Shown piece by piece: positions 11,914 to 64,000 of a DNA stretch of 64,000 bases; the stretch's first letter is position 1; each line of letters starts with the position of its first letter. The notes beneath the pieces are model-generated. The model worked only from the letters and a program-made list of their open reading frames with translations, had not been told where the DNA came from and did not search any database. The DNA comes from Candidatus Cloacimonadota bacterium (lineage in GTDB: Bacteria > Cloacimonadota > Cloacimonadia > Cloacimonadales > WRIO01). The DNA lies in contig JAKPKU010000170.1 of the NCBI GenBank assembly GCA_029553545.1, positions 4,621 to 68,620 of the forward strand, given 5' to 3'. Position numbers and translations under genes: made by a program.

Positions 11914-12083
11914 CTTGTTCGTAGTTGTCCATCGCACGTATACAAATAAGGCTATTTGTATTTACAAAGCCAGATTATTGGGAATGAGAGATTTCTTTTT
12001 GGCTTGTTCGTAGTTATCCATCGCACGTATACAAATAAGGCTATTTGTATTTACAAAGCCAGATTATCGTGAATGAGAGATTA
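11914..12083 (+). repeat. Direct tandem duplication, 2 x 89 bp
   Basis: cttgttcgtagtt(g/a)tccatcgcacgtatacaaataaggctatttgtatttacaaagccagattat.. occurs at 11914 and again at 12003. Each copy contains the hairpin tacaaata/tatttgta. Confidence 0.85.
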
Positions 12084-12116
12084 TTAAAAAGAAGTCGCAA
12101 CATCCTTTAAAAAAAC

Positions 12117-12239
12117 CTTTCACAAATGTGAAAGCTCCTAACCCGCAGCGAAGCGAGGACCCTAACCTTCGACGAAGTCGAAGTACCTAACCTTTACGAA
12201 GTAAAGTACCTAACCCGCAGCGAAGCGAGGACCAAAAGG
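12117..12239 (+). repeat. Mini-array of short GAA-loop hairpins punctuated by CCTAACC
   Basis: CCTAACC occurs 4 times (12137, 12161, 12186, 12209). The copies are separated by 16-18-nt units: cgcagcgaagcgagga (twice), ttcgacgaagtcgaagta and tttacgaagtaaagta. The hairpin ctttcaca/tgtgaaag precedes the array. Confidence 0.75.
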
Positions 12240-12569
12240 TGTGTTGTTCAAAAAAAAGTTGATTGTCTTGGTCTGTGTGCCATGGAACTGTTTGCCAAAG
12301 ACTTTAAACCTAAGTGTGTTGCAGTGTGTTGTTAAAAAAAAAGTTGATTGTCTTGTTCTGTGTGCCATGGAACCGTTTGCCAAAGACTTTAAACCTAAGT
12401 GTGTTGCAGTGTGTTGTAGTGTGTTGCAGTGTGTTGTTAAAAAAAAAGTTGATTGTCTTGACCTGTGTGCCATGGAACTGTTTGCCAAAGACTTTAAACC
12501 TAAGTGTGTTGCAGTGTGTTGTTAAAAAAAAAGTTGATTGTCTTGACCTGTGTGCCATGGAACTGTTTG
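12238..12569 (+). repeat. Tandem array of about 85-bp units, 4 copies (76, 85, 105 and ~66 nt)
   Basis: The unit is gtgtgttgcagtgtgttgttaaaaaaaaagttgattgtcttgNNctgtgtgccatggaacYgtttgccaaagactttaaacctaa. Unit starts are at 12238, 12314, 12399 and 12504. The third unit carries a 20-nt internal duplication. Confidence 0.9.
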
Positions 12570-55684: not shown

Positions 55685-57196
55685 ATGAATGTCATACCAA
55701 AAATCGTAAAGTATCCAGAGAAGGGGAGCCCTTGTTCTATTGCAAGTAACTGGGTGATTGGAGCCCCTTCGGCTTTAAAGAAATATGCTTTGATGCTACA
55801 TGCAGATTTAAAAGACATCTTGGGACTGGAGCTTAAATTTAACAATAGTAAAACCAGCGAGGCAATCAAGCTAAAGTTGAACACGAAAGCTTGCAGCGAG
55901 GCAGAATCTTTCAATATCGCTTTTTATGAAAACTCAATTGAATTAATAGGGCATGATGAGCAAGGCTTATTTTACGCTATACAAACCTTGAAACAAGTTT
56001 TGCTTACGCACGGTAATAATATTGCAGCGTGTTCAATACACTCAATAAAAGGATATTCTTGGCGGGGAATGCACCTCGATGTGAGCCGCCACTTCTTCCC
56101 CATTCCTTATCTCAAAAAGCTCATTGATTTGATGGCATTGTTTAGACTCAATCGCTTTCATTGGCATTTGACCGACGATCAAGGCTGGCGGATTGAAAGT
56201 AAAAAGTTCCCTCTATTACATAAAATTGGCTCTTGCCGTGACGAAGAGGGCTATAGAGAGCCGCAATATTATACGCAAGAAGAGATTAAAGATTTTGTTG
56301 CATATGCAGAAGAACGCTTCGTCGAGGTAATACCTGAAATCGATATGCCTGGGCACACACAATCAGTTTTGGCTGCCTATCCTAACTTGTCATGCACGGG
56401 TGAACCAACACAGACATGGACCAAATGGGGCGTTTCTGAAGATGTTTTGTGTATGGGCAGGGATAGTACATATGAATTTGTAGAAGAGCTCTTAAATGAG
56501 GTGATTCCGCTCTTTAAAAGCAAGTATTTTCATATTGGTGGAGACGAATGTCCTGATACTGCTTGGCAAAGCTGTCCACATTGCCAAAAAAAGAAAGACG
56601 AGCTTGGGCTGCATGACTTCAGGGCTCTGCAACATCAATTTACAAACTTTTTATCTGAAGTATTAAAAAAGCATGATAAAATCATGATTGGCTGGGACGA
56701 AATAACTGAAGGTCAGCTGCCAGATAATACCGTAGTCATGGCATGGCGTGGCAATGCTGGGAAAGCAGCTGTTAATGCGATCTCACAAGGGAAAAATGTG
56801 ATTTTCACACCTAATAGTAGCTATTACCTCGACTGGCGTCAGTCAGATAAAGAAGGGGAGCCTGGCGGCTTTGGCGTCACAGATCTAAAAAAAGTCTTTC
56901 AATATGACCCACAAGAAATTATCAAAATTGAAGAGCTACAATATACTCACAATTCAACAAAAAGTGATTTGAAACTTTATTTTGATATTAATAAATGCAC
57001 AGATTATTTCTTAGGTATTCAGGTTAATCTCTGGACAGAACGCATTCACAATGAAAAAGAGCTGAAATATATGCTTTTCCCACGATTGTTAGCGCTGGCT
57101 GAGCAAGCGGACAGCCGTTCTACAAATAAAGATTATATTGAGTTTAGCAAACGAGCAGAAATCATCATGGAAAAGGTTTTAAATCATTATTTGTAA
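55685..57196 (+). CDS. GH20-family beta-N-acetylhexosaminidase
   Basis: Motifs RGMHLDVSRHF, FHWHLTDDQGWR and HIGGDE. The ATG directly abuts the preceding stop. Confidence 0.85.
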   Translation: MNVIPKIVKYPEKGSPCSIASNWVIGAPSALKKYALMLHADLKDILGLELKFNNSKTSEAIKLKLNTKACSEAESFNIAFYENSIELIGHDEQGLFYAIQTLKQVLLTHGNNIAACSIHSIKGYSWRGMHLDVSRHFFPIPYLKKLIDLMALFRLNRFHWHLTDDQGWRIESKKFPLLHKIGSCRDEEGYREPQYYTQEEIKDFVAYAEERFVEVIPEIDMPGHTQSVLAAYPNLSCTGEPTQTWTKWGVSEDVLCMGRDSTYEFVEELLNEVIPLFKSKYFHIGGDECPDTAWQSCPHCQKKKDELGLHDFRALQHQFTNFLSEVLKKHDKIMIGWDEITEGQLPDNTVVMAWRGNAGKAAVNAISQGKNVIFTPNSSYYLDWRQSDKEGEPGGFGVTDLKKVFQYDPQEIIKIEELQYTHNSTKSDLKLYFDINKCTDYFLGIQVNLWTERIHNEKELKYMLFPRLLALAEQADSRSTNKDYIEFSKRAEIIMEKVLNHYL

Positions 57197-57216
57197 TCTA
57201 AGGGCAATGGTATTTT

Positions 57217-57337
57217 GAACTGAGAGCTTATTTGGTCCTCGCTGCGCAGCGGGTGAGGATCAAAATCGTGCGTTGCAGTGGTTTGTTAAATAATAAATCG
57301 CATCTAAACCCGCTCGTAGTAGTCATCTGCTGATTTA
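57217..57337 (+). repeat. Repeat cluster: gaactgagagct motif, REP-like GC hairpin and the 5' half of repeat Y (copy 2)
   Basis: ggtcctcgctgcgcagcgggtgaggatc is a hairpin related to the acccgcagcgaagcgaggacc units at 12.1-12.2 kb. It is followed by gtgcgttgcagtggtttgttaaataataaatcgcatctaaacccgctcgtagtagtcatctgctgattt. Confidence 0.7.
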
Positions 57338-57424
57338 TAAATATCTTGATTAGAAGTTTATACAGGAAGAACCTCCCCTTTATCATCCTGGTAACAAACG
57401 TTTAAACCGAAGGTATAAAGGACA

Positions 57425-59614
57425 TTACTTTAGTATCATCATTTTCCCTGAGATAATCTCCTGATCAGAATCAGCTCTGTAAAGGTATAGACCACTTGAT
57501 ACTGCCTTACCATTCATATCTTTCTTATTCCAGACAAATTCACTACTACTATCTTTTTTTACCTGATTGCTTATTTTATTAACCAACTGCCCTTTTATAT
57601 TATAGATAGAGATGTTCTTGACTTTGGTATTGTTTTTAATTAAAAATCTTACCTGGTCTGACCTGCATGGATTAGGATAGACAGAGATGGTTGATGGTTT
57701 TACAAGTGTCTGATCATCAGTTGATACAGTATAATCAAAACTGTAGAGATTGACTCCAGAAGAAGCTATACTAACTATTCTTTGTTGATCAAAATATATA
57801 TAGTACATAGCATTACGATTTTCATTGATCTCTCCGACCTGACTAAACATTCCATTTCCAATATAGTAAACTAATGCTGTCTCAGAGTCAAAATCTTTAA
57901 CTACTGATGTTTGGTTATATATTGTTGAAACACTCAATAAATCTTTTGTCATTTGATCAAGAAATGTGATAGAATGATCAGTGTAGTTATATAATTTATT
58001 TATATATTCTGAAATTGTTATAAAAATCTCATCATTCACGAAATATGCTCCATATTCAATACCACTAATTATCGGTGTTTCGTACATAATAGTAACAGGA
58101 TCATGCTTATCTCTAAACTGAAGTTTATTATTGTTTTTAAATATCAATAAGTTATTATGCGAATAAGATTGGTTTGAAATGTGTTGACTTTGTATTGTAT
58201 ATAAGAATTCTAACTCCGTATTATTAAAAGAATAAATATCCGTTGAGAAAATACCATTATTAACTTTGTTAAATAGAATTAAACTATCAATAATAGAGAA
58301 ATCATAATATGAGACATTGAGTTGATTTGAACAAACAAGAGATAAATTTTCTGAGCTAATATTGTAAATGTCAAAAAAGTTAGTGTTATCTATTCTATAC
58401 TTTAAGTATAAAGAGTTGTTTTTAATATCAAAATCGACAATATTAAGATCATTTTTGACATTCTCTTTACTCAGGATGATTTGATTATTATCAAACACAG
58501 AATGAAAAATAAATTGATTATTTGCAACATCATATACTCCAATATAGCCATTTTTATACATAGCTCCTTGTGCATTTAATCCGTACTTAGATAATAATTC
58601 AGTATTGTATTCAATATTATAGGTATTTATGCTCATATAAGCATTTCTGTATAAATAAGGATAGTGAAGGCATAAGCTTCCTGATTGAACATGATATTGC
58701 CCGTCTTCGGTATATAATAATGATTGGTCTGAAATATTGTATACATCAAATCTGTTTTTATGATCGACGGTATAAATATTTCCATCATGTATAAGTGCAT
58801 CTGTATAGTAATCATTACTTTGGGATGGGTTATATTTATGAAAAACAGTGGCAATGGAATCCAAATCACTTATGTTGAGCACCGTAATTTCGTGATGCCC
58901 TAATAAAAAAAGATTATCCCCTTCAATTTTCATATTAAAAAGAACACCTCCATTGCCAGTACTCCCAATAATTTCTTCATGAATATAATTATTATTATCA
59001 AACTGATCTAAATCTTCTATCATATGATAGAATCTTAATGAAAAAAATTCAGTGTTGTTTATAATAAAACTCCCATAACAAACTAATAGTGAATCGCTTA
59101 TAGTAATCAAACCAAATAGATTGTCAATATAACCATCGAAAGATAAATTGTGTTTGTTTATTTTTAATGTCCTCTCATGTTCATTGTCTGCCAAAAGAAT
59201 ATAATGATTAGATATTGATGGTCTAAAATTATTGTTTTTAGAGATATTAGTGTCGATCTTTGCAATAAATTGCATTGGTGACACACTGATATTAAATACA
59301 TTAATAAGATAAGAATCTTCATCTTGGTCAAAGAAATACAAGGAATCCCCTGAAACAAATGCAGTATTAATACCAATACCTTTTTTCTCATAAAACGAAA
59401 TTCTATCCAATGCACCATTAGTGTTTATCTCAAATTCTTCGATCATACCTTCACTTTCAACATACAATCTGTTTTGATACTTATTGATTGATCCTGAGTA
59501 GTTTGAATAGTCCAGTACCCTGCTATGATAATTAACATTACTGATGTTGGCTATATGTTGTGCATTTAACAAAGTAAAGACACCTAAGATGATTATAAAT
59601 ATTATTTTCTTCAT
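57425..59614 (-). CDS. T9SS-sorted large repeat protein, paralogue 1 (possible beta-propeller)
   Basis: Signal peptide and recurring strand-like repeats. The C-terminal tail is VYPNPCRSD..NISIYNIKGQLV..WNKKDMNGKAVSSGLYLYR. Start at 59614 (MKKIIF) behind ggagg. Confidence 0.75.
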   Translation of the reverse strand: MKKIIFIIILGVFTLLNAQHIANISNVNYHSRVLDYSNYSGSINKYQNRLYVESEGMIEEFEINTNGALDRISFYEKKGIGINTAFVSGDSLYFFDQDEDSYLINVFNISVSPMQFIAKIDTNISKNNNFRPSISNHYILLADNEHERTLKINKHNLSFDGYIDNLFGLITISDSLLVCYGSFIINNTEFFSLRFYHMIEDLDQFDNNNYIHEEIIGSTGNGGVLFNMKIEGDNLFLLGHHEITVLNISDLDSIATVFHKYNPSQSNDYYTDALIHDGNIYTVDHKNRFDVYNISDQSLLYTEDGQYHVQSGSLCLHYPYLYRNAYMSINTYNIEYNTELLSKYGLNAQGAMYKNGYIGVYDVANNQFIFHSVFDNNQIILSKENVKNDLNIVDFDIKNNSLYLKYRIDNTNFFDIYNISSENLSLVCSNQLNVSYYDFSIIDSLILFNKVNNGIFSTDIYSFNNTELEFLYTIQSQHISNQSYSHNNLLIFKNNNKLQFRDKHDPVTIMYETPIISGIEYGAYFVNDEIFITISEYINKLYNYTDHSITFLDQMTKDLLSVSTIYNQTSVVKDFDSETALVYYIGNGMFSQVGEINENRNAMYYIYFDQQRIVSIASSGVNLYSFDYTVSTDDQTLVKPSTISVYPNPCRSDQVRFLIKNNTKVKNISIYNIKGQLVNKISNQVKKDSSSEFVWNKKDMNGKAVSSGLYLYRADSDQEIISGKMMILK

Positions 59615-59656
59615 GATTACCTCCAATAAATGTGATTAGTAAAAGATGGCGGTCAA

Positions 59657-59827
59657 TTAGAATTCTCTGTCTATGTAGAAATCAAAACGATTTACATTTT
59701 GCACACTGGCACTTTTTGTTACGCCATGGCATGTAACTGTAACGGTTGAATAGACACATGGGTCGAAGTAATCTTCAACAGGTGTTGTATAAAATCCATC
59801 TGATCCTGTATAGTATAGTATAATCAT
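59657..59827 (-). pseudogene. Truncated copy of the small secreted protein gene, fused to the cassette leader
   Basis: The product, MIILYYTGSDGFYTTPVEDYF..VTVTCHGVTKSASVQNVNRFDFYIDREF, matches only the C-terminal 50 aa of the 130-aa protein at 62219-62611. It lacks a signal peptide. Confidence 0.65.
59808..59822. repeat. Pentanucleotide microsatellite (GTATA)3
   Basis: gtatagtatagtata lies immediately 3' (in the coding sense) of the ATG at 59827. Confidence 0.9.
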
Positions 59828-59887
59828 GATTATCTCCTGCATCACCACTATTTCAAATTATTGCCTGTCCAGTAGGCAACTGTGCTA

Positions 59888-59915
59888 ACAATACATTGGC
59901 AAGCAAAGCTGTCAA
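59888..59915 (-). promoter_or_regulatory. Cassette promoter, copy 1
   Basis: On the minus strand: TTGACA, 16 nt, TATTGT. It is a duplicate of the promoter at 62820-62847. Confidence 0.55.
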
Positions 59916-59969
59916 GAAATATTTAAAATGATTGATATTGTATTGTAAGTATTAAAAGTATAAAGGACA

Positions 59970-62168
59970 TTACTTTAGTATCATCATTTTCCCTGAGATA
60001 ATCTCCTGATCAGAATCAGCCCTGTAAAGGTATAGACCACTTGATACTGCCTTACCGTTCATATCTTTTTTATCCCAGATAAACTCAATGCCATTCCCTT
60101 GTTTTGCTTCATTACCTAATTTATTGACTAATTGTCCTTTTATGTTATAGACAGAGATGTTTTTGACTTTGGTATTGTTAGTAACTGAAAATTTTACAAG
60201 GTCTGACCTGCATGGATTAGGATAGACAGAGATGGTTGATGGTTTTACAAGTGTCTGATCATCAGTTGATACAGTATAATCAAAACTGTAGAGATTGATT
60301 CCGGAAGAAGAACTGCTTATCATTTTGTTAAGATCCGGGTAGTAATAATCACTTGATGCTACTCTGGATTCAAACACACCAATTTCATTTAATGCCCCGT
60401 TTCCTACGTAATAAATATTTCGTGACGAGGAGTTATAATTGTATATACTTAGTATTTCATTATACAATGTCAATAGGGCATCTGAGTATTGATAGTTAGC
60501 AGAAAAAGTGGGGGTTAGATTGTTATTATTTATATTAAAAATCTTTAGGTATCTATATCGGTCACTCAAAGCTATATAATCCTGATTGATAGGAATCACA
60601 CTATGAGTCCCATAATTATTTGGAACCTGAACAGGGTAGGAAAAAAGAATATTTTCAGGGGCATTGATATCTCTGAAGCATAAATACCCATTATTATAAG
60701 TATAAATATATTCATTACTTAAGTAACCAGAGCTTAATTGTTGAGATCCATTGAATGTGCAGTAATATTCGATATCGTTTCCTGTTATCCGATAAACCCT
60801 GGTAATGAAATTCTGCCCTGTATAACAATCAAAATAAATATAATCACCAATAATATCAAACCATGAGGGAGGGTATGTGTCAAATGTAATGGTATTAATT
60901 AATTGTAACTGATTTTCTGAAAAGCCATAAATCTCCAAAAATGTCTGCCCGTTAATTTTTAGTCTGACATATAATTTCCCTTCATAAACATCAATGTTTA
61001 AAAATCTTTCAACTCCTTCTTTATAAATAGAATAATGCATGTTATCGAAAATGGAGTAAAAGTTTAGGTATTTATTGATCGGATCGTATGTCATTGCATA
61101 ATTATCCTTATAAGCAGAATATAAGTAATGAATCCCATACTTTCTTACGCATTGGATGTTATCTTCTATTTGATATTGAGCCAAAAAATGATCATTATTA
61201 CTGTATAAGTAAGGATAATTAAGACAGAATGTCCCATACTGTATATTGCCTGTATTTTGTTCCTGATAAACAAGAGTAGAATTTTGAATATCATAGACTT
61301 TTATCTGAGAATTTATATCTGCTGTAAAAAGCTTATTATTAATCAGTAATGCATCGGTATAGTAAAACCAGTAAGATGGAGTAGAATTATGTAGTGTATA
61401 AATTGTATGCAGATTTGATATATTATGAATATCAAATACCTTGATGTAATCAAAACCTAAAACATATAGCAAATTATCTTTATGTTTTAAATAGACTATA
61501 TCAAGCTCTTCGTTATCTGATAATACTTCCTCGTGAAAGAAACCATTCGGATAATTTATATTCTCCTGATTCAAATTGAAAAAACGAAGACTATAGATTT
61601 CGTTATTCCCGTTATTTATACTACCATATAAAATCAATACAGAATCCACAACCGTAAAGATGCCATAAATATTTTGATGTTCCCCTTCGTAGTCTAATGT
61701 AAATCTGTTTAGTTTTCTGATTTTTTCATGTTCATTGTCTGACAATAAAATATAATGCTTGTATATGGCTTTAGTCATTGAATACCATCTGTTGATTTCT
61801 GTATCAATAGTGCCAACAAATCTCATGGGGCTGACAGAAATATCTATGACTGACATTAAGTAACTATTGTCATCCCTCTCAAAGTAATAAAGGGAATCAC
61901 CTTCAATAAATGAAGTAACTCCAGTTAATTGACCCTTTTCCAGAAAACTGATTCTCTCCAGATTACCGTCAGACATTATATTATATTCTTCAATCTTTCC
62001 TTTATTTTCAACATATAAATGGTTGTTATGCATGTTAACGGCACCATTGTATGAATCATAATCTACGATATGCCGATCAAGACGGATATTGCTTATTTGT
62101 GTAATTTCTGCAGATAATGAGATAATAAATAGAAATATCCAAGCGACACCTATTATGATTTGTTTCAT
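59970..62168 (-). CDS. T9SS-sorted large repeat protein, paralogue 2
   Basis: 732 aa and colinear with paralogue 1. The middle is divergent, and the last ~115 codons are nearly identical at the nucleotide level. RBS aaggag. Confidence 0.75.
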   Translation of the reverse strand: MKQIIIGVAWIFLFIISLSAEITQISNIRLDRHIVDYDSYNGAVNMHNNHLYVENKGKIEEYNIMSDGNLERISFLEKGQLTGVTSFIEGDSLYYFERDDNSYLMSVIDISVSPMRFVGTIDTEINRWYSMTKAIYKHYILLSDNEHEKIRKLNRFTLDYEGEHQNIYGIFTVVDSVLILYGSINNGNNEIYSLRFFNLNQENINYPNGFFHEEVLSDNEELDIVYLKHKDNLLYVLGFDYIKVFDIHNISNLHTIYTLHNSTPSYWFYYTDALLINNKLFTADINSQIKVYDIQNSTLVYQEQNTGNIQYGTFCLNYPYLYSNNDHFLAQYQIEDNIQCVRKYGIHYLYSAYKDNYAMTYDPINKYLNFYSIFDNMHYSIYKEGVERFLNIDVYEGKLYVRLKINGQTFLEIYGFSENQLQLINTITFDTYPPSWFDIIGDYIYFDCYTGQNFITRVYRITGNDIEYYCTFNGSQQLSSGYLSNEYIYTYNNGYLCFRDINAPENILFSYPVQVPNNYGTHSVIPINQDYIALSDRYRYLKIFNINNNNLTPTFSANYQYSDALLTLYNEILSIYNYNSSSRNIYYVGNGALNEIGVFESRVASSDYYYPDLNKMISSSSSGINLYSFDYTVSTDDQTLVKPSTISVYPNPCRSDLVKFSVTNNTKVKNISVYNIKGQLVNKLGNEAKQGNGIEFIWDKKDMNGKAVSSGLYLYRADSDQEIISGKMMILK

Positions 62169-62182
62169 GAATTACTCCTTAT

Positions 62183-62211
62183 AAAAAGGCGGCCAGATTT
62201 ATCTGGCCGCC
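62183..62211 (-). terminator. Intra-operon hairpin terminator or attenuator
   Basis: On the minus strand: ggcggccaga-taaa-tctggccgcc followed by ttttt. It sits between the small gene stop (62219) and the RBS of the 732-aa gene. Confidence 0.7.
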
Positions 62212-62218
62212 GATTTTG

Positions 62219-62611
62219 TTAGAATTCTCGGTCTATGTAAAAATCAAAACGATTTACATTTTGAACAGATTCTGTTCTTGAAATTCCATGACATGTTACT
62301 GTAACATTAGAATAGTCAGCAGGGTTATAGTAAGCTGAAACAGGTGTTGTATAAAATCCATCTGATCCGCTTGCTAATGTTTCTATAACATCTAAGGAAC
62401 TATTAGTTCGGTGTTCGATTACAACAACCACTGCTTCTCCGCTTTTAGCTCTCCATTGTGGGATGCTGGAATGATTTGGGTAATAGGATTGATATACATA
62501 ACCACGGATTTGACCAGGGATATCTCTTGAAGTCTGTACTGTGACTGTATCTGCACTAAGTAAGCATATTGCAAATACAACGATCATAAGGGTAATAAGT
62601 GACTTTTTCAT
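62219..62611 (-). CDS. Small secreted protein, possibly with a carboxypeptidase-regulatory-like (transthyretin-like) fold
   Basis: Signal peptide MKKSLITLMIVVFAICLLSA. The pattern IRGYVY..A.V.V....SGSDGFYTT resembles CarboxypepD_reg-type domains. RBS ggagg. Confidence 0.6.
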   Translation of the reverse strand: MKKSLITLMIVVFAICLLSADTVTVQTSRDIPGQIRGYVYQSYYPNHSSIPQWRAKSGEAVVVVIEHRTNSSLDVIETLASGSDGFYTTPVSAYYNPADYSNVTVTCHGISRTESVQNVNRFDFYIDREF

Positions 62612-62687
62612 TATTCCTCCATTTATAATTTTTTGTTTAAAGAAAGTTTTGGGTAAAATGAAAGCTAAGTAAATTTATTATGCGTTC

Positions 62688-62756
62688 CTATAAATAAATT
62701 ACTTCTAAACGAGCTGATCCCGTATAGTATAGTATAGTATAGTATAGTATAACCAT
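62688..62756 (-). other. 22-codon leader ORF containing the microsatellite
   Basis: The strong RBS aaggag lies 6 nt before the ATG at 62756. It translates as MVILYYTILYYTGSARLEVIYL. Its first 14 codons parallel the start of the fused pseudogene in the other cassette. Confidence 0.4.
62722..62751. repeat. Pentanucleotide microsatellite (GTATA)6
   Basis: Six perfect gtata units begin 2 codons after the ATG at 62756 (in the coding sense, TATAC x6). Confidence 0.9.
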
Positions 62757-62819
62757 GATTATCTCCTTAATCATCACCACTATTTCAAGTTATTGTCTAT
62801 CCAGTAGACAACTGTGCTA

Positions 62820-62847
62820 ATAATACATTGGCAAGCAAAGCTGTCAA
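62820..62847 (-). promoter_or_regulatory. Cassette promoter, copy 2
   Basis: On the minus strand: TTGACA, 16 nt, TATTAT, about 60 nt upstream of the leader ATG. Confidence 0.6.
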
Positions 62848-63049
62848 GAAATATTTTAAATGAATAACATTTTATTGTAATTAAATATATTATTATGTGA
62901 TTTATGCTTTATAATCTAAGAACTTTGAATTAGAAAACAGACAATAAGATGGAATTGCATAAAAAGTTAAAACAACATTTAAAAATGACAGCTTAAAAGT
63001 TGCCTCATTTTCCTATTAAAGAGGGTACAATAAAACACAAAAACGCCTG

Positions 63050-63310
63050 ATATCAGGTCTGTTTTCCCTTCTTTTTATTCATTATCTATTCAATCTTGTA
63101 TATGACTATTTTTCAGATATATCCCTTTGTGACTCCCCTTACATTCCCCTTGCTATCTTGGAGAATCAAAGAAATTCTTATAGGAACCTAAAGGGAATGT
63201 AAAGGAGATTTATTTTGAATATTTAAGGTATAGAAAAAATATGTAAACTTTTAGTAATGAAATGATGATTGTTAAATTTGTAATTTGAAGATTATGCAAC
63301 AGCCTCAAGG
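63050..63310 (+). repeat. Dispersed repeat X, copy B (most complete)
   Basis: It contains a long imperfect hairpin at 63133-63207: ctcc-cc-ttacattccc...gggaatgtaa-a-ggag, with inner stems ctat/atag and agaat/attct. It aligns with the copy at 43890-44140 in reverse. Confidence 0.75.
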
Positions 63311-63430
63311 TGTGTTGTCTTATGTTGTGTTAAAAAAACCACCTCCAAACCCGCTTGTAGTAGGCGTCTGCTAATTTGGTTGAAAATAGTTTTCAAAAAA
63401 CTCCATTTTGTAAGCCCTATATATAGAGGA
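63306..63430 (+). repeat. Dispersed repeat Y, copy 3
   Basis: gtgtgttgtcttatgttgtgttaaaaaaaccacctccaaacccgcttgtagtaggcgtctgctaatttggttgaaaatagttttcaaaaaactccattttgtaagccctatatatagagga. It directly abuts repeat X copy B. Confidence 0.8.
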
Positions 63431-63581
63431 CGATGTTTTTATTTAAGATTCTGCTTTATTCTTTACAAGTTGTTTTGAATTACTGTGTAACAGTCTCATC
63501 TCGTGTTGTTAAATAAATCTAAAGAAAAAAAATGTTGACTTAAAAGAGTTGTTTGTAAAAAATGATTAAGAAGGATGGTTT

Positions 63582-64000
63582 ATGCAAAAGATAAGTATAA
63601 AAGATTATAAGAATTTGAAAAGCTTGACGCAAAAGAAGTACAGAAAGCTCTATAGAAAGCTAATTGTCGAGGGTGAGAATACTATTTTTCAGTTGCTTGA
63701 CAACGACAAATCATTTGATGCAATCTATATTACAGAAGCTTATGCAAAAAACCACTACCGATATTTAGAAAAACATATCACTAAAAGTGAAATAAAAGAG
63801 CGAATTAGGCTAATTGATGAAGCCAAAATAAAAGAAGTCACAGACACTGAAAACCCACAAGATATCATTGCTTGCGTTAGCTTTGAGCCCACACCAATAA
63901 ATGAGAATGGGACTCTTCTATATTTAGATGGCATACAGGATCCTGGCAATATGGGTACTATTTTGCGAACAGCCTTGGCTGCGGGCATTGATGGCGTATT
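63582..64000 (+). CDS. TrmH/SpoU-family RNA 2'-O-methyltransferase, 3' end cut by the window edge
   Basis: The frame is open from the ATG at 63582 to the window end, so it is absent from the ORF track, which needs a stop. The SpoU motif 1 region is LDGIQDPGNMGTILRTA. Confidence 0.75.
   Translation, partial: MQKISIKDYKNLKSLTQKKYRKLYRKLIVEGENTIFQLLDNDKSFDAIYITEAYAKNHYRYLEKHITKSEIKERIRLIDEAKIKEVTDTENPQDIIACVSFEPTPINENGTLLYLDGIQDPGNMGTILRTALAAGIDGV

Follow-up and report, generated by a model that had tools for sequence, protein, structure and literature searches.

A hypermutable (TATAC)n tract in a short leader open reading frame ahead of secreted-protein genes of Cloacimonadota: a candidate phase-variation switch

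Introduction

Phase variation by simple sequence repeats (SSRs) is textbook knowledge in host-adapted pathogens and, to our knowledge, is essentially undescribed in uncultured environmental phyla. Here, we analyse a 64,000-nt stretch of DNA from a Candidatus Cloacimonadota bacterium of the Cloacimonadales (contig JAKPKU010000170.1, positions 4,621 to 68,620; hereafter, the window), in which a pentanucleotide repeat, (TATAC)n on the coding strand, follows the start codon of a short leader open reading frame (ORF) ahead of genes for secreted proteins. The window carries two such gene sets, cassettes A and B. Very probably, the tract of cassette A is a hypermutable repeat that is maintained inside the leader ORF.

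In the opa genes of Neisseria, a pentanucleotide repeat, (CTCTT)n, stands just after the start codon, in the signal-peptide region of the structural gene itself, and slippage shifts the reading frame of a surface product. In Haemophilus influenzae, the frame of lex2A governs the expression of lex2B. Precedents for repeats that act through their length are nadA, vlhA, uspA2 and hmw1A. The tetranucleotide tract of lex2A is highly variable in length, and pentamer tracts of about four units, such as (GACGA)n in hsdM of H. influenzae, switch at high rates (PMC2651432). The (ATCTTTC)n repeat in the 5' untranslated region (UTR) of H. influenzae hmw1A is processed by RNase III and acts post-transcriptionally (PMC12721329). 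Finally, in the attenuators tnaC and ermCL and in upstream ORF (uORF)-dependent Rho termination, a ribosome near the stop of a short ORF sets access to an adjacent RNA element; uORF-dependent Rho attenuation has been reviewed (PMC12360218).

The locus described here resembles opa in having a pentanucleotide just after a start codon, slippage that shifts the frame, and surface or secreted products. Unlike in opa, the tract of cassette A belongs to a separate short ORF outside the structural gene, and each of its frames stops 53-93 nt before the next gene, which encodes a 130-aa protein. An earlier note on this DNA, made from the sequence alone, had drawn the opa analogy, which does not hold for cassette A, where the repeat lies outside the structural gene and, in the window lineage, the leader is not fused to the 130-aa gene in any frame; only the degenerate cassette B resembles opa, and its product is a 56-aa remnant. 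The arrangement of a repeat in a short upstream ORF with the gene of interest downstream is that of lex2A/lex2B. Nevertheless, lex2A is a tetramer at a single locus of a host-adapted pathogen, whereas here a portable module with a conserved tail occurs at several loci, and the leader stop is placed against the downstream Shine-Dalgarno (SD) sequence or start codon. As in hmw1A, an SSR lies upstream of an adhesin-type gene, within a putatively transcribed leader; in hmw, however, the repeat pairs with a G-rich arm into a long hairpin, and more repeats mean lower expression, whereas here the tract has no such partner and an SD-ATG precedes it. Pentamer switching at about four units in hsdM, where the repeat is inside the enzyme coding region, unlike here, supports real mutability for tracts of 4-10 units.

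The possible likeness to attenuators lies in a short, putatively translated ORF, in its conserved tail and in a G-free spacer past the leader stop; unlike known attenuators, which respond to a metabolite or an antibiotic, this one would take a heritable SSR frameshift as its input. By this comparison, the element belongs to the SSR contingency loci and would work most like leader-peptide or uORF control with a heritable frameshift as input. In the literature searched, no paper linked Cloacimonadota to phase variation, nor the type IX secretion system (T9SS) to SSR switching. What appears to be new is that the repeat would gate a short leader ORF, not a structural gene or a promoter, and that the same module fronts several secreted-protein operons beside hypervariable cassette alleles.

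Results and Discussion

The repeat tract and its length variation

In the 64-kb window, Tandem Repeats Finder (TRF) located (GTATA)6.0 at 62722-62751 and (GTATA)3.0 at 59808-59822, both with a purity of 100%; both tracts stand after a start codon, as the earlier note had reported. A search for (GTATA)3 with up to two mismatches hit these two places only (5 overlapping matches vs 0.17 expected), a count reached in 0 of 100 shuffled windows. The genes of the whole cassette region, as well as the elements of cassettes A and B located below, are on the minus strand, where cassette A reads ATGGT(TATAC)6GGGATCAG and cassette B ATGAT(TATAC)3AGGATCAG, each with an AGGAG SD sequence 6 nt ahead of the ATG. 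In cassette A, the SD (AAGGAG, 62763..62768) is part of AGGAGATAATCATG, which is conserved at all window-type loci, the ATG is at 62754..62756 and the tract, (TATAC)6, at 62722..62751. The resulting leader ORF of 22 codons (MVILYYTILYYTGSARLEVIYL, 62756..62688) and the 56-aa remnant ORF of cassette B (MIILYYTGSDGFYTT...) are present as previously noted, while two details needed correction: the ribosome-binding sites called identical (AAGGAGATAATCATG in cassette A, CAGGAGATAATCATG in cassette B) differ by one base and by a 3-nt indel just upstream, and the gap from the leader stop to the ATG of the 130-aa gene measures 76 nt, not 77.

Exact-protein look-ups and pattern scans yielded about 30 independent assemblies of the same leader; a scan of metagenomes for the tract/leader junction gave five loci, two of them duplicates. 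At this locus, 4, 5, 6, 7, 9 or 10 units were seen. Specifically, n was 6, 9, 6, 7 and 9 in the window lineage; 5 in 5/5 assemblies of lineage P0001; 6, 4, 7, 4, 4, 4, 4, 10, 10, 6 and 4 in lineage P0002; 9, 9, 9, 9, 10, 9, 6 and at least 9 in lineage P0003; and 10 at locus L040. Across flanks of 2.5-7.8 kb, there was no more than one single-nucleotide polymorphism and no further indel, and n differed by 1-6 units. Within the window lineage, 0-1 mismatch and no further gap were found in 2.9-7.8 kb despite different n (window vs L001, one mismatch in 7,752 nt). Likewise, L007 matched L008 without any mismatch over 5,673 nt, with n = 6 vs 4. More than 40 pairs in three lineages had 0-6 mismatches and no other gap, yet differed in n; therefore, the rate of change of the tract exceeds that of the average site by three orders of magnitude or more, and it is truly hypermutable.

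These observations agree with what is expected of a slipped-strand contingency locus: a perfect tract (6 units in the window, 4-12 elsewhere), length polymorphism between near-identical genomes, a unit change that shifts the reading frame, and secreted or surface products (a signal peptide, T9SS sorting domains and hypervariable cassette genes). The length variation between strains that the earlier note had proposed to look for thus exists, and the tract, whose absence from orthologous loci the note would have taken as a sign of a neutral remnant, is present at each orthologous and paralogous locus examined. It is uninterrupted at each locus reaching it, down to 66% identity of the small protein.

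That the length differences are an artefact of assembly or sequencing is hardly credible. In its favour, all tract lengths are consensus values of short-read metagenome assemblies, and several contigs start or stop at or near the tract. Nevertheless, tracts of 20-60 nt are below the read length and below the k=141 used for several contigs, the same n recurs when samples and assemblers are independent (six assemblies have n=4, at least nine have n=9 and five have n=5), and the compared flanks are without any other indel.

Reading frames and the conserved module

The place where the leader ends depends on the number of units. Counted 3' of the tract, translation would stop at +17 when n = 1 mod 3, at +34 when n = 0, and at +57 when n = 2, that is, 93, 76 and 53 nt upstream of the ATG of the 130-aa gene; slippage is thus predicted to alter the frame in which the leader is translated, as had been proposed. 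In the window lineage, each frame ends before the 130-aa gene and none fuses the leader to it. The +17 stop is a TAG at 62705..62707, whose position is kept in both leader families described below. The frame read only if n = 2 mod 3 holds a conserved tail of 18 codons, GISSFRSNLFIGTHNKFT, closed by the TAG ending at +57 (62665..62721), with the motif CATAATAAATTTACTTAG at 62665-62682. With n=6, the leader of the window uses the +34 stop and is out of frame with this tail.

A scan of species-representative genomes for (TATAC)4 hit many AT-rich taxa, and 10 of the 119 loci listed belong to Cloacimonadota, including one mislabelled contig. The window-type leader is also present at L040 and L090. 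The contig of L090 is labelled as an uncultured Gammaproteobacteria metagenome-assembled genome (MAG), with leader and small gene nearly identical to those of L005; this label is probably a binning error. Moreover, a paralogous leader was found, the STF type, laid out as SD-ATGATG, about 54 codons, CCTGTCTCTC, (TATAC)n and GGATATGCCTCTTATAATAAAAACATCAACATCGGATGTCATAATAAATTCACATAG. It occupies five loci in MAG STF1_208 (L083, L086, L088, L094 and L125) and is also found in L131, L118 and further assemblies (L152-L158, L163-L165). Its tract has six units in L083, L152 and L125, nine in L086, 12 in L153-L158, eight in L165, four in L164, five in L131, seven in L118, and three with a TATAT unit ahead in L163. 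Two loci on the reverse strand carry compound tracts, (TATAC)4-TATAT-(TATAC)10 in L088 and (TATCC)9(TATAC)5 in L094, which indicate that the repeat unit evolves while the total length keeps the leader frame class.

Genes behind STF-type leaders are homologues of the small and big pair of the window, or unrelated secreted proteins or lipoproteins and T9SS proteins; therefore, the module is portable, with the TAG as its 3' boundary. L118 and L040 belong to one MAG, so that a single genome holds both leader types. Each leader is a short ORF with its own SD and start (AGGAGATAATCATG in the window type, SD-ATGATG in the STF type), and the SD-ATGATG ORF stays open into the tract in all STF copies, with upstream lengths of 163, 162 and 154 nt. 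Common to both families are the SD-start ORF into the tract, a stop ending exactly at +17, a 39-nt segment, and then CATAATAAATTYACWTAG, whose TAG ends exactly at +57. The +17 and +57 positions are kept across 13 diverged leaders with three exceptions (+20 replaces +17 in L118, +75 replaces +57 in L125, and the +57 TAG is mutated to TTG in L024), while the stop of the third frame is not conserved (+34, +85, +88, +103 or +121).

The tails of the +57 frame, GISSFRSNLFIGTHNKFT in the window type and GYASYNKNINIGCHNKFT in the STF type, share the pattern GxxS[FY]..N[LI].[IF]G.[HY]NKFT. Compared by codon position, the two agree at 13/11/6 of 18 sites (Fisher p = 0.04); L118 departs from the STF consensus at 2/0/6 sites by codon position, with six synonymous and two non-synonymous codons, and the variable bases of the motif, TTY and ACW, are synonymous sites. 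Altogether, the coding signature of the +57 frame is suggestive.

In L024 and L023 (P0003 lineage), the +57 TAG is a TTG, and with a spacing of 111 nt the tail frame would continue in frame into the ATG of the small protein; in L118, the third frame is without a stop and fused to the small protein. Some alleles of these types could make N-terminally extended proteins.

The conserved flanks also bear on a neutral origin, by which the microsatellite would be hypermutable and yet without function, left from recombination of cassette heads. It would suit a neutral tract that all three frame classes are found in nature, that the conserved tail is out of frame in most alleles, and that (TATAC)n of at least four units is sporadic in many AT-rich taxa. 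A neutral tract should, however, decay by point mutation, whereas nearly all tracts are uninterrupted across diverged lineages, two leader families and at least five loci in one genome, with the flanking SD-ATG, stops and tail conserved. Furthermore, the locus offers an internal comparison: the one cassette with a broken leader, cassette B, has the shortest tract, three units, invariant in the two assemblies that carry this cassette (a look-up of big protein B gave one further contig only, so that this stability rests on two assemblies). In this context, we regard a neutral remnant as improbable.

Ahead of the STF leader of L152 and L153, at some 200-520 nt from the small gene, stand two to three tandem units of about 58 nt, which contain a perfect hairpin, CTACAAGCATCCTTGCTTGTAG, and a widespread-looking segment, GTCATTCTGAACGAAGTGAAGAATC. 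The block as a whole, of about 400 nt, behaves as a portable cassette.

Frame classes of natural alleles

Counted as distinct lineage-allele combinations, six window-type alleles use the +17 stop, five the third frame and one is in frame, against seven, three and two for the STF type, two of whose assignments assume the usual upstream length. In-frame alleles are thus under-represented, with 3/24 of the majority alleles (p ~0.02 for three or fewer at one third each, a statistic computed on alleles that are not independent and were unevenly ascertained). They are found in the P0001 lineage (n=5, five assemblies) and in P0011/L163, and tend to short or interrupted tracts, n=5 in the former and TATAT plus three units in L163, as would be expected for locked states. 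L094 (162 nt upstream, 14 units) and L125 (154 nt, six units) fall in the +17 class, like 163-nt alleles with n = 0 mod 3. Each observed out-of-frame allele is one slip from an in-frame state.

Elements adjoining the +57 stop

Past the in-frame stop, the leader runs into elements that differ by lineage. In the window, CUUUCAUUU (62656..62664), which starts 1 nt past the +57 stop, has its predicted pairing partner in AAAUGGAGG (62616..62624), the SD region of the 130-aa gene; in the window and L005, this predicted helix of CUU(U/C)CAUUU with AAAUGGAGG would sequester the SD of the small gene. In L083, L088 and L153, ACUCCA or UUACUCCAA is predicted to pair with the SD region, the 9-bp pairing of UUACUCCAA with UUGGAGUAA in L153 being perfect. 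As in the window, the predicted helix begins 1 nt past the +57 stop in L005, L083 and L088. A strong 18-bp hairpin begins 3 nt past the +57 stop in L094. In L125, the in-frame leader stop overlaps the start of the next gene as ATGA, a classic arrangement for translational coupling. Moreover, the window-type spacer after the +57 stop is without G across 41-42 nt and has 6-9 C, which makes it rut-like but short. The stop lies clearly against an SD helix or a start codon in L083, L088, L153, L005 and L125, and this arrangement is weak or absent in the window, L017, L086 and L094.

A crude ribosome model, in which the RNA was blocked to 12 nt past each stop, was used to compute SD accessibility. 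With a block at +57, L083 and L088 went from 0.01 to 0.54-0.65, and L005 rose from 0.03 to 0.22. SD unmasking is therefore supported in part, as the model works for these three loci and not for the window lineage, L017, L086 and L094. The comparison of lineages points to the region 57-110 nt past the tract as where leader translation could act.

A gated leader model and its rivals

It is somewhat probable that the frame of the leader controls downstream expression. The best model, which we consider fairly probable, is that of a translated leader ORF gated by the SSR, which would control the downstream translation of a secreted-protein operon. By this model, a slippage-prone repeat is kept inside a short leader ORF ahead of an operon for a small beta-sandwich protein and a T9SS cargo protein, and the gain or loss of one 5-nt unit would move the leader among three frames, two of which end early (+17 or +34). 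The third frame (n = 2 mod 3) would read the 18-residue tail to the conserved TAG at +57, and this stop adjoins what may be the translation control of the next gene, an SD helix, a G-free rut-like spacer, a hairpin or ATGA, by lineage. Only on an in-frame leader would ribosomes then advance to the point where they can unmask or couple translation, or keep Rho from acting; in that case, the operon would be switched stochastically and heritably. The window allele (n=6) would be out of frame, one slip from the in-frame state, with low expression predicted.

The hypermutable tract, the conserved module, the frame-dependent stops and the +57 stop that adjoins downstream elements are the observed parts of this scheme. 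From them, we infer that the leader is translated, that in frame means ON, and that expression follows. A broader reading is more tentative, though by no means far-fetched: that promoter, SD-start, (TATAC)n, 18-codon tail and stop form a portable Cloacimonadota module for stochastic, heritable leader-peptide attenuation, in which a microsatellite would decide whether a regulatory uORF is read as far as a stop against the next ribosome-binding site. Such a module would have spread to many operons for T9SS cargo and other secreted proteins, and a free-living uncultured bacterium of anaerobic digesters would have a multi-locus phasome of surface proteins.

Several observations weigh against the gated leader. 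Natural alleles are mostly out of frame, an awkward fact if the tail peptide is selected, and an apparent rule that all STF alleles use the +17 stop (6/6) weakened to 7 of 12 with a census of called ORFs and further loci. In the window lineage itself, a block at +57 barely changes SD accessibility (0.25 to 0.29), in L017, L086 and L094 it does not raise it, and a second CUUUC segment is able to replace the SD-pairing partner. Within each family, the coding signature of the tail is weak (variable columns 4/3/9, p = 0.14, in the STF type and 0/2/2 in the window type), and no coding signature was found in the first 54 STF leader codons, upstream of the tract; therefore, if these codons are translated, only the act of translation matters.

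A further point of this kind leads to another explanation. The 18-nt motif that holds the +57 stop also contains a -10-like CATAAT (or TACAAT), which both families place 39 nt past the tract, the intervening sequence differing between them and the spacing not, and the portable module ends about where a CATAAT-driven transcript would begin. The tract could accordingly lie upstream of an internal promoter, with CATAAT as its -10 box, or form a variable spacer or structure in the 5' UTR, and transcription or the fate of the mRNA would then depend on the number of units, on helical phase or on tract length. Each unit of 5 bp makes up half a helical turn, and hmw1A offers the precedent of a 5'-UTR SSR acting post-transcriptionally (PMC12721329). 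We consider such control by length unlikely. Reading the sequences by eye, no -35-like hexamer was found at a spacing of 16-18 nt in either family, and the CATAAT-bearing motif does not recur as a promoter motif in the window. A tract of 20-60 nt is too long for a promoter spacer, with CATAAT lying 39 nt downstream of it. The observed n show no parity preference, and the best duplex of the tract with the transcript reaches -6.3 kcal/mol vs a shuffled mean of -9.0. Moreover, length control leaves unexplained the SD-ATG into the tract, the fixed stops, the synonymous pattern and the ATGA overlap of L125. An hmw-like repeat hairpin was also considered and rejected, as the tract has no complementary partner and folding with n = 3-10 gave weak self-pairing only. 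A permissive Rfam 15 scan of 56000-64000 returned noise, the best hits near the leader scoring 17-22 bits against gathering thresholds of 44-100.

Alternatively, the leader peptide itself, Met, (ILYYT)n and an 18-aa tail (...HNKFT*), might be the phase-variable product, for example a membrane peptide, with no regulation of the operon. The synonymous changes in the conserved tail, the existence of in-frame alleles and a hydrophobic repeat-encoded N-terminus all suit such a product. Its repeat-encoded part, however, varies freely in length, which would be unusual for a functional peptide. Furthermore, the module is always found directly ahead of a secreted-protein gene and ends exactly at the +57 stop, and this stop adjoins SD-pairing segments or overlaps the next start codon. 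In our opinion, this possibility is unlikely.

If the gated-leader model is true, Cloacimonadales of digesters diversify their surface stochastically, presumably against phage or other fluctuating pressure, and the design of an SSR-gated uORF joins the known bacterial switches. It would also call for caution in annotation and in the comparison of MAGs, since such tracts break assemblies and differ between samples.

Cassette A: promoter, genes and hairpin

A promoter-like site, P1 (TTGACA-16-TATTAT, 11/12 matches), lies at 62820..62847, within a block common to cassettes A and B; this promoter/leader block of cassette A is ~90% identical to that of cassette B (59840-59951), and its 26-nt promoter core, TTGACAGCTTTGCTTGCCAATGTATT, occurs in the window only at the heads of the two cassettes. 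Just 3' of the -10 box, cassette A has a 7-5-7 palindrome, TTGTCTActggaTAGACAA (TTGTCTA-ctgga-TAGACAA, 62793..62811), of mixed conservation, with a counterpart in cassette B, TTGCCTActggaCAGGCAA (TTGCCTA..CAGGCAA, 59861-59879). An operator and a 5' hairpin are both possible roles. Signs of conserved pairing are mixed: the changes look compensatory between A and B, yet other lineages alter one arm only.

The small gene (62219..62611) encodes the 130-aa secreted protein, modelled as a signal peptide plus a beta-sandwich (pLDDT 81). A fold search with this model returned generic beta-sandwich matches only (TM 0.4-0.5), and searches of Pfam, NCBIfam and PDB gave no match. The family is very small: 1.84 billion proteins include five representatives of it, and its named members are all from Candidatus Cloacimonadales or Cloacimonadota MAGs. 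The big gene (59970..62168) encodes a 732-aa cargo protein, in which profile searches identified a T9SS type-A C-terminal sorting domain; in searches of the big proteins against Pfam, NCBIfam and PDB, the sorting domain was the sole recognisable domain.

Between the two genes, a GC-rich hairpin with a T-run (62188..62211) is terminator-like. Its structure is kept and its sequence is not (window, L007, L017 and other loci), with compensatory arm pairs GGCGGCCAGA/TCTGGCCGCC, GCGGTCAG/CTGACCGC and GGCGGTCA/TGACCGCC, which points to a terminator-like or attenuator element within the operon. The earlier note had proposed a slippage-driven switch acting through the leader and coupled to the hairpin at 62183-62211. 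The hypermutable tract and the frame-dependent stops lend support to the first part; the coupling, like the opa analogy, finds no support, as the hairpin is a separately conserved element about 500 nt downstream, past the small gene.

Cassette B and the history of the locus

Cassette B has a promoter-like site of its own (TTGACA-16-TATTGT, 59888..59915) and a short tract, (TATAC)3 (59808..59822); the one other assembly with cassette B has three units as well. Here, leader ATG, tract and the last 51 codons of a small-protein gene form a fusion ORF of 56 aa (59657..59827). The fusion is in frame and goes back to a deletion whose ends are copies of GGATCAG, one after the tract and one within the small gene; the leader region from +17 to +57 is missing. 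A further deletion, bounded by two copies of TTGACC, removed the 5' arm of the hairpin between the genes. Downstream lies the gene of a 729-aa cargo protein with a T9SS sorting domain (57425..59614), whose N-terminal part has 99% DNA identity to the single-cassette B alleles L017 and L018. Cassette B thus appears to be a degenerate derivative, in which two microhomology deletions took the regulatory part and a hairpin arm, and its tract appears to have shrunk to three stable units.

Each big gene is of type A or type B, and the N-terminal parts of the two types cannot be aligned; the promoter/leader and the C-terminal sorting domain are all that the types have in common. Between SpoU-methylase and GH20 genes, sister strains have A or B singly, whereas the window lineage has A and B in tandem. 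Since A or B occurs singly in sister strains and the N-termini of the big genes are unalignable, this is not a recent simple duplication, as had been assumed, but two divergent cassette types at one locus. Cassette genes are also much more divergent than flanking genes: between lineages, identity is 95.5-99.3% for the flanking housekeeping genes, ~92% for the leader and 77-84% for the small gene. Altogether, the locus is a site of hypervariable surface-protein cassettes behind a common leader. In the P0001 lineage (L005, 5632-6543), cassette A lies between an SBP/DUF6144 gene pair and a gene for a tyrosine recombinase (phage integrase family), and this copy may be on a mobile element.

A 45-nt direct repeat (57292-57336 and 63333-63377, 80% identical, core AAACCCGCTNGTAGTAG.CNTCTGCT) flanks the two-cassette region, with a copy just 3' of big gene B and another ahead of promoter A. 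These repeats could be boundaries for cassette exchange.

Outside Cloacimonadota, very long or multiple (TATAC)n arrays were seen in one MAG each of Metamycoplasmataceae and Dehalococcoidia and in Brachyspira genomes (L051, L102, L103, L135 and L035/L043/L068/L087), in contexts unrelated to the Cloacimonadota leader. Elsewhere in the window, a dense intergenic cluster of tandem repeats at 11914-12522 holds an 89-nt unit in two copies, a 24-nt unit, CCTAACCCGCAGCGAAGCGAGGA, in 3.8 copies, and an 85/105-nt unit in two to four copies with GTGTGTTGTTAAAAAAAAAGTTGATTGTCTTG...GCCATGGAAC; a motif akin to these repeats, GTGTTGTTAAAAAAA, lies near 63313-63345.

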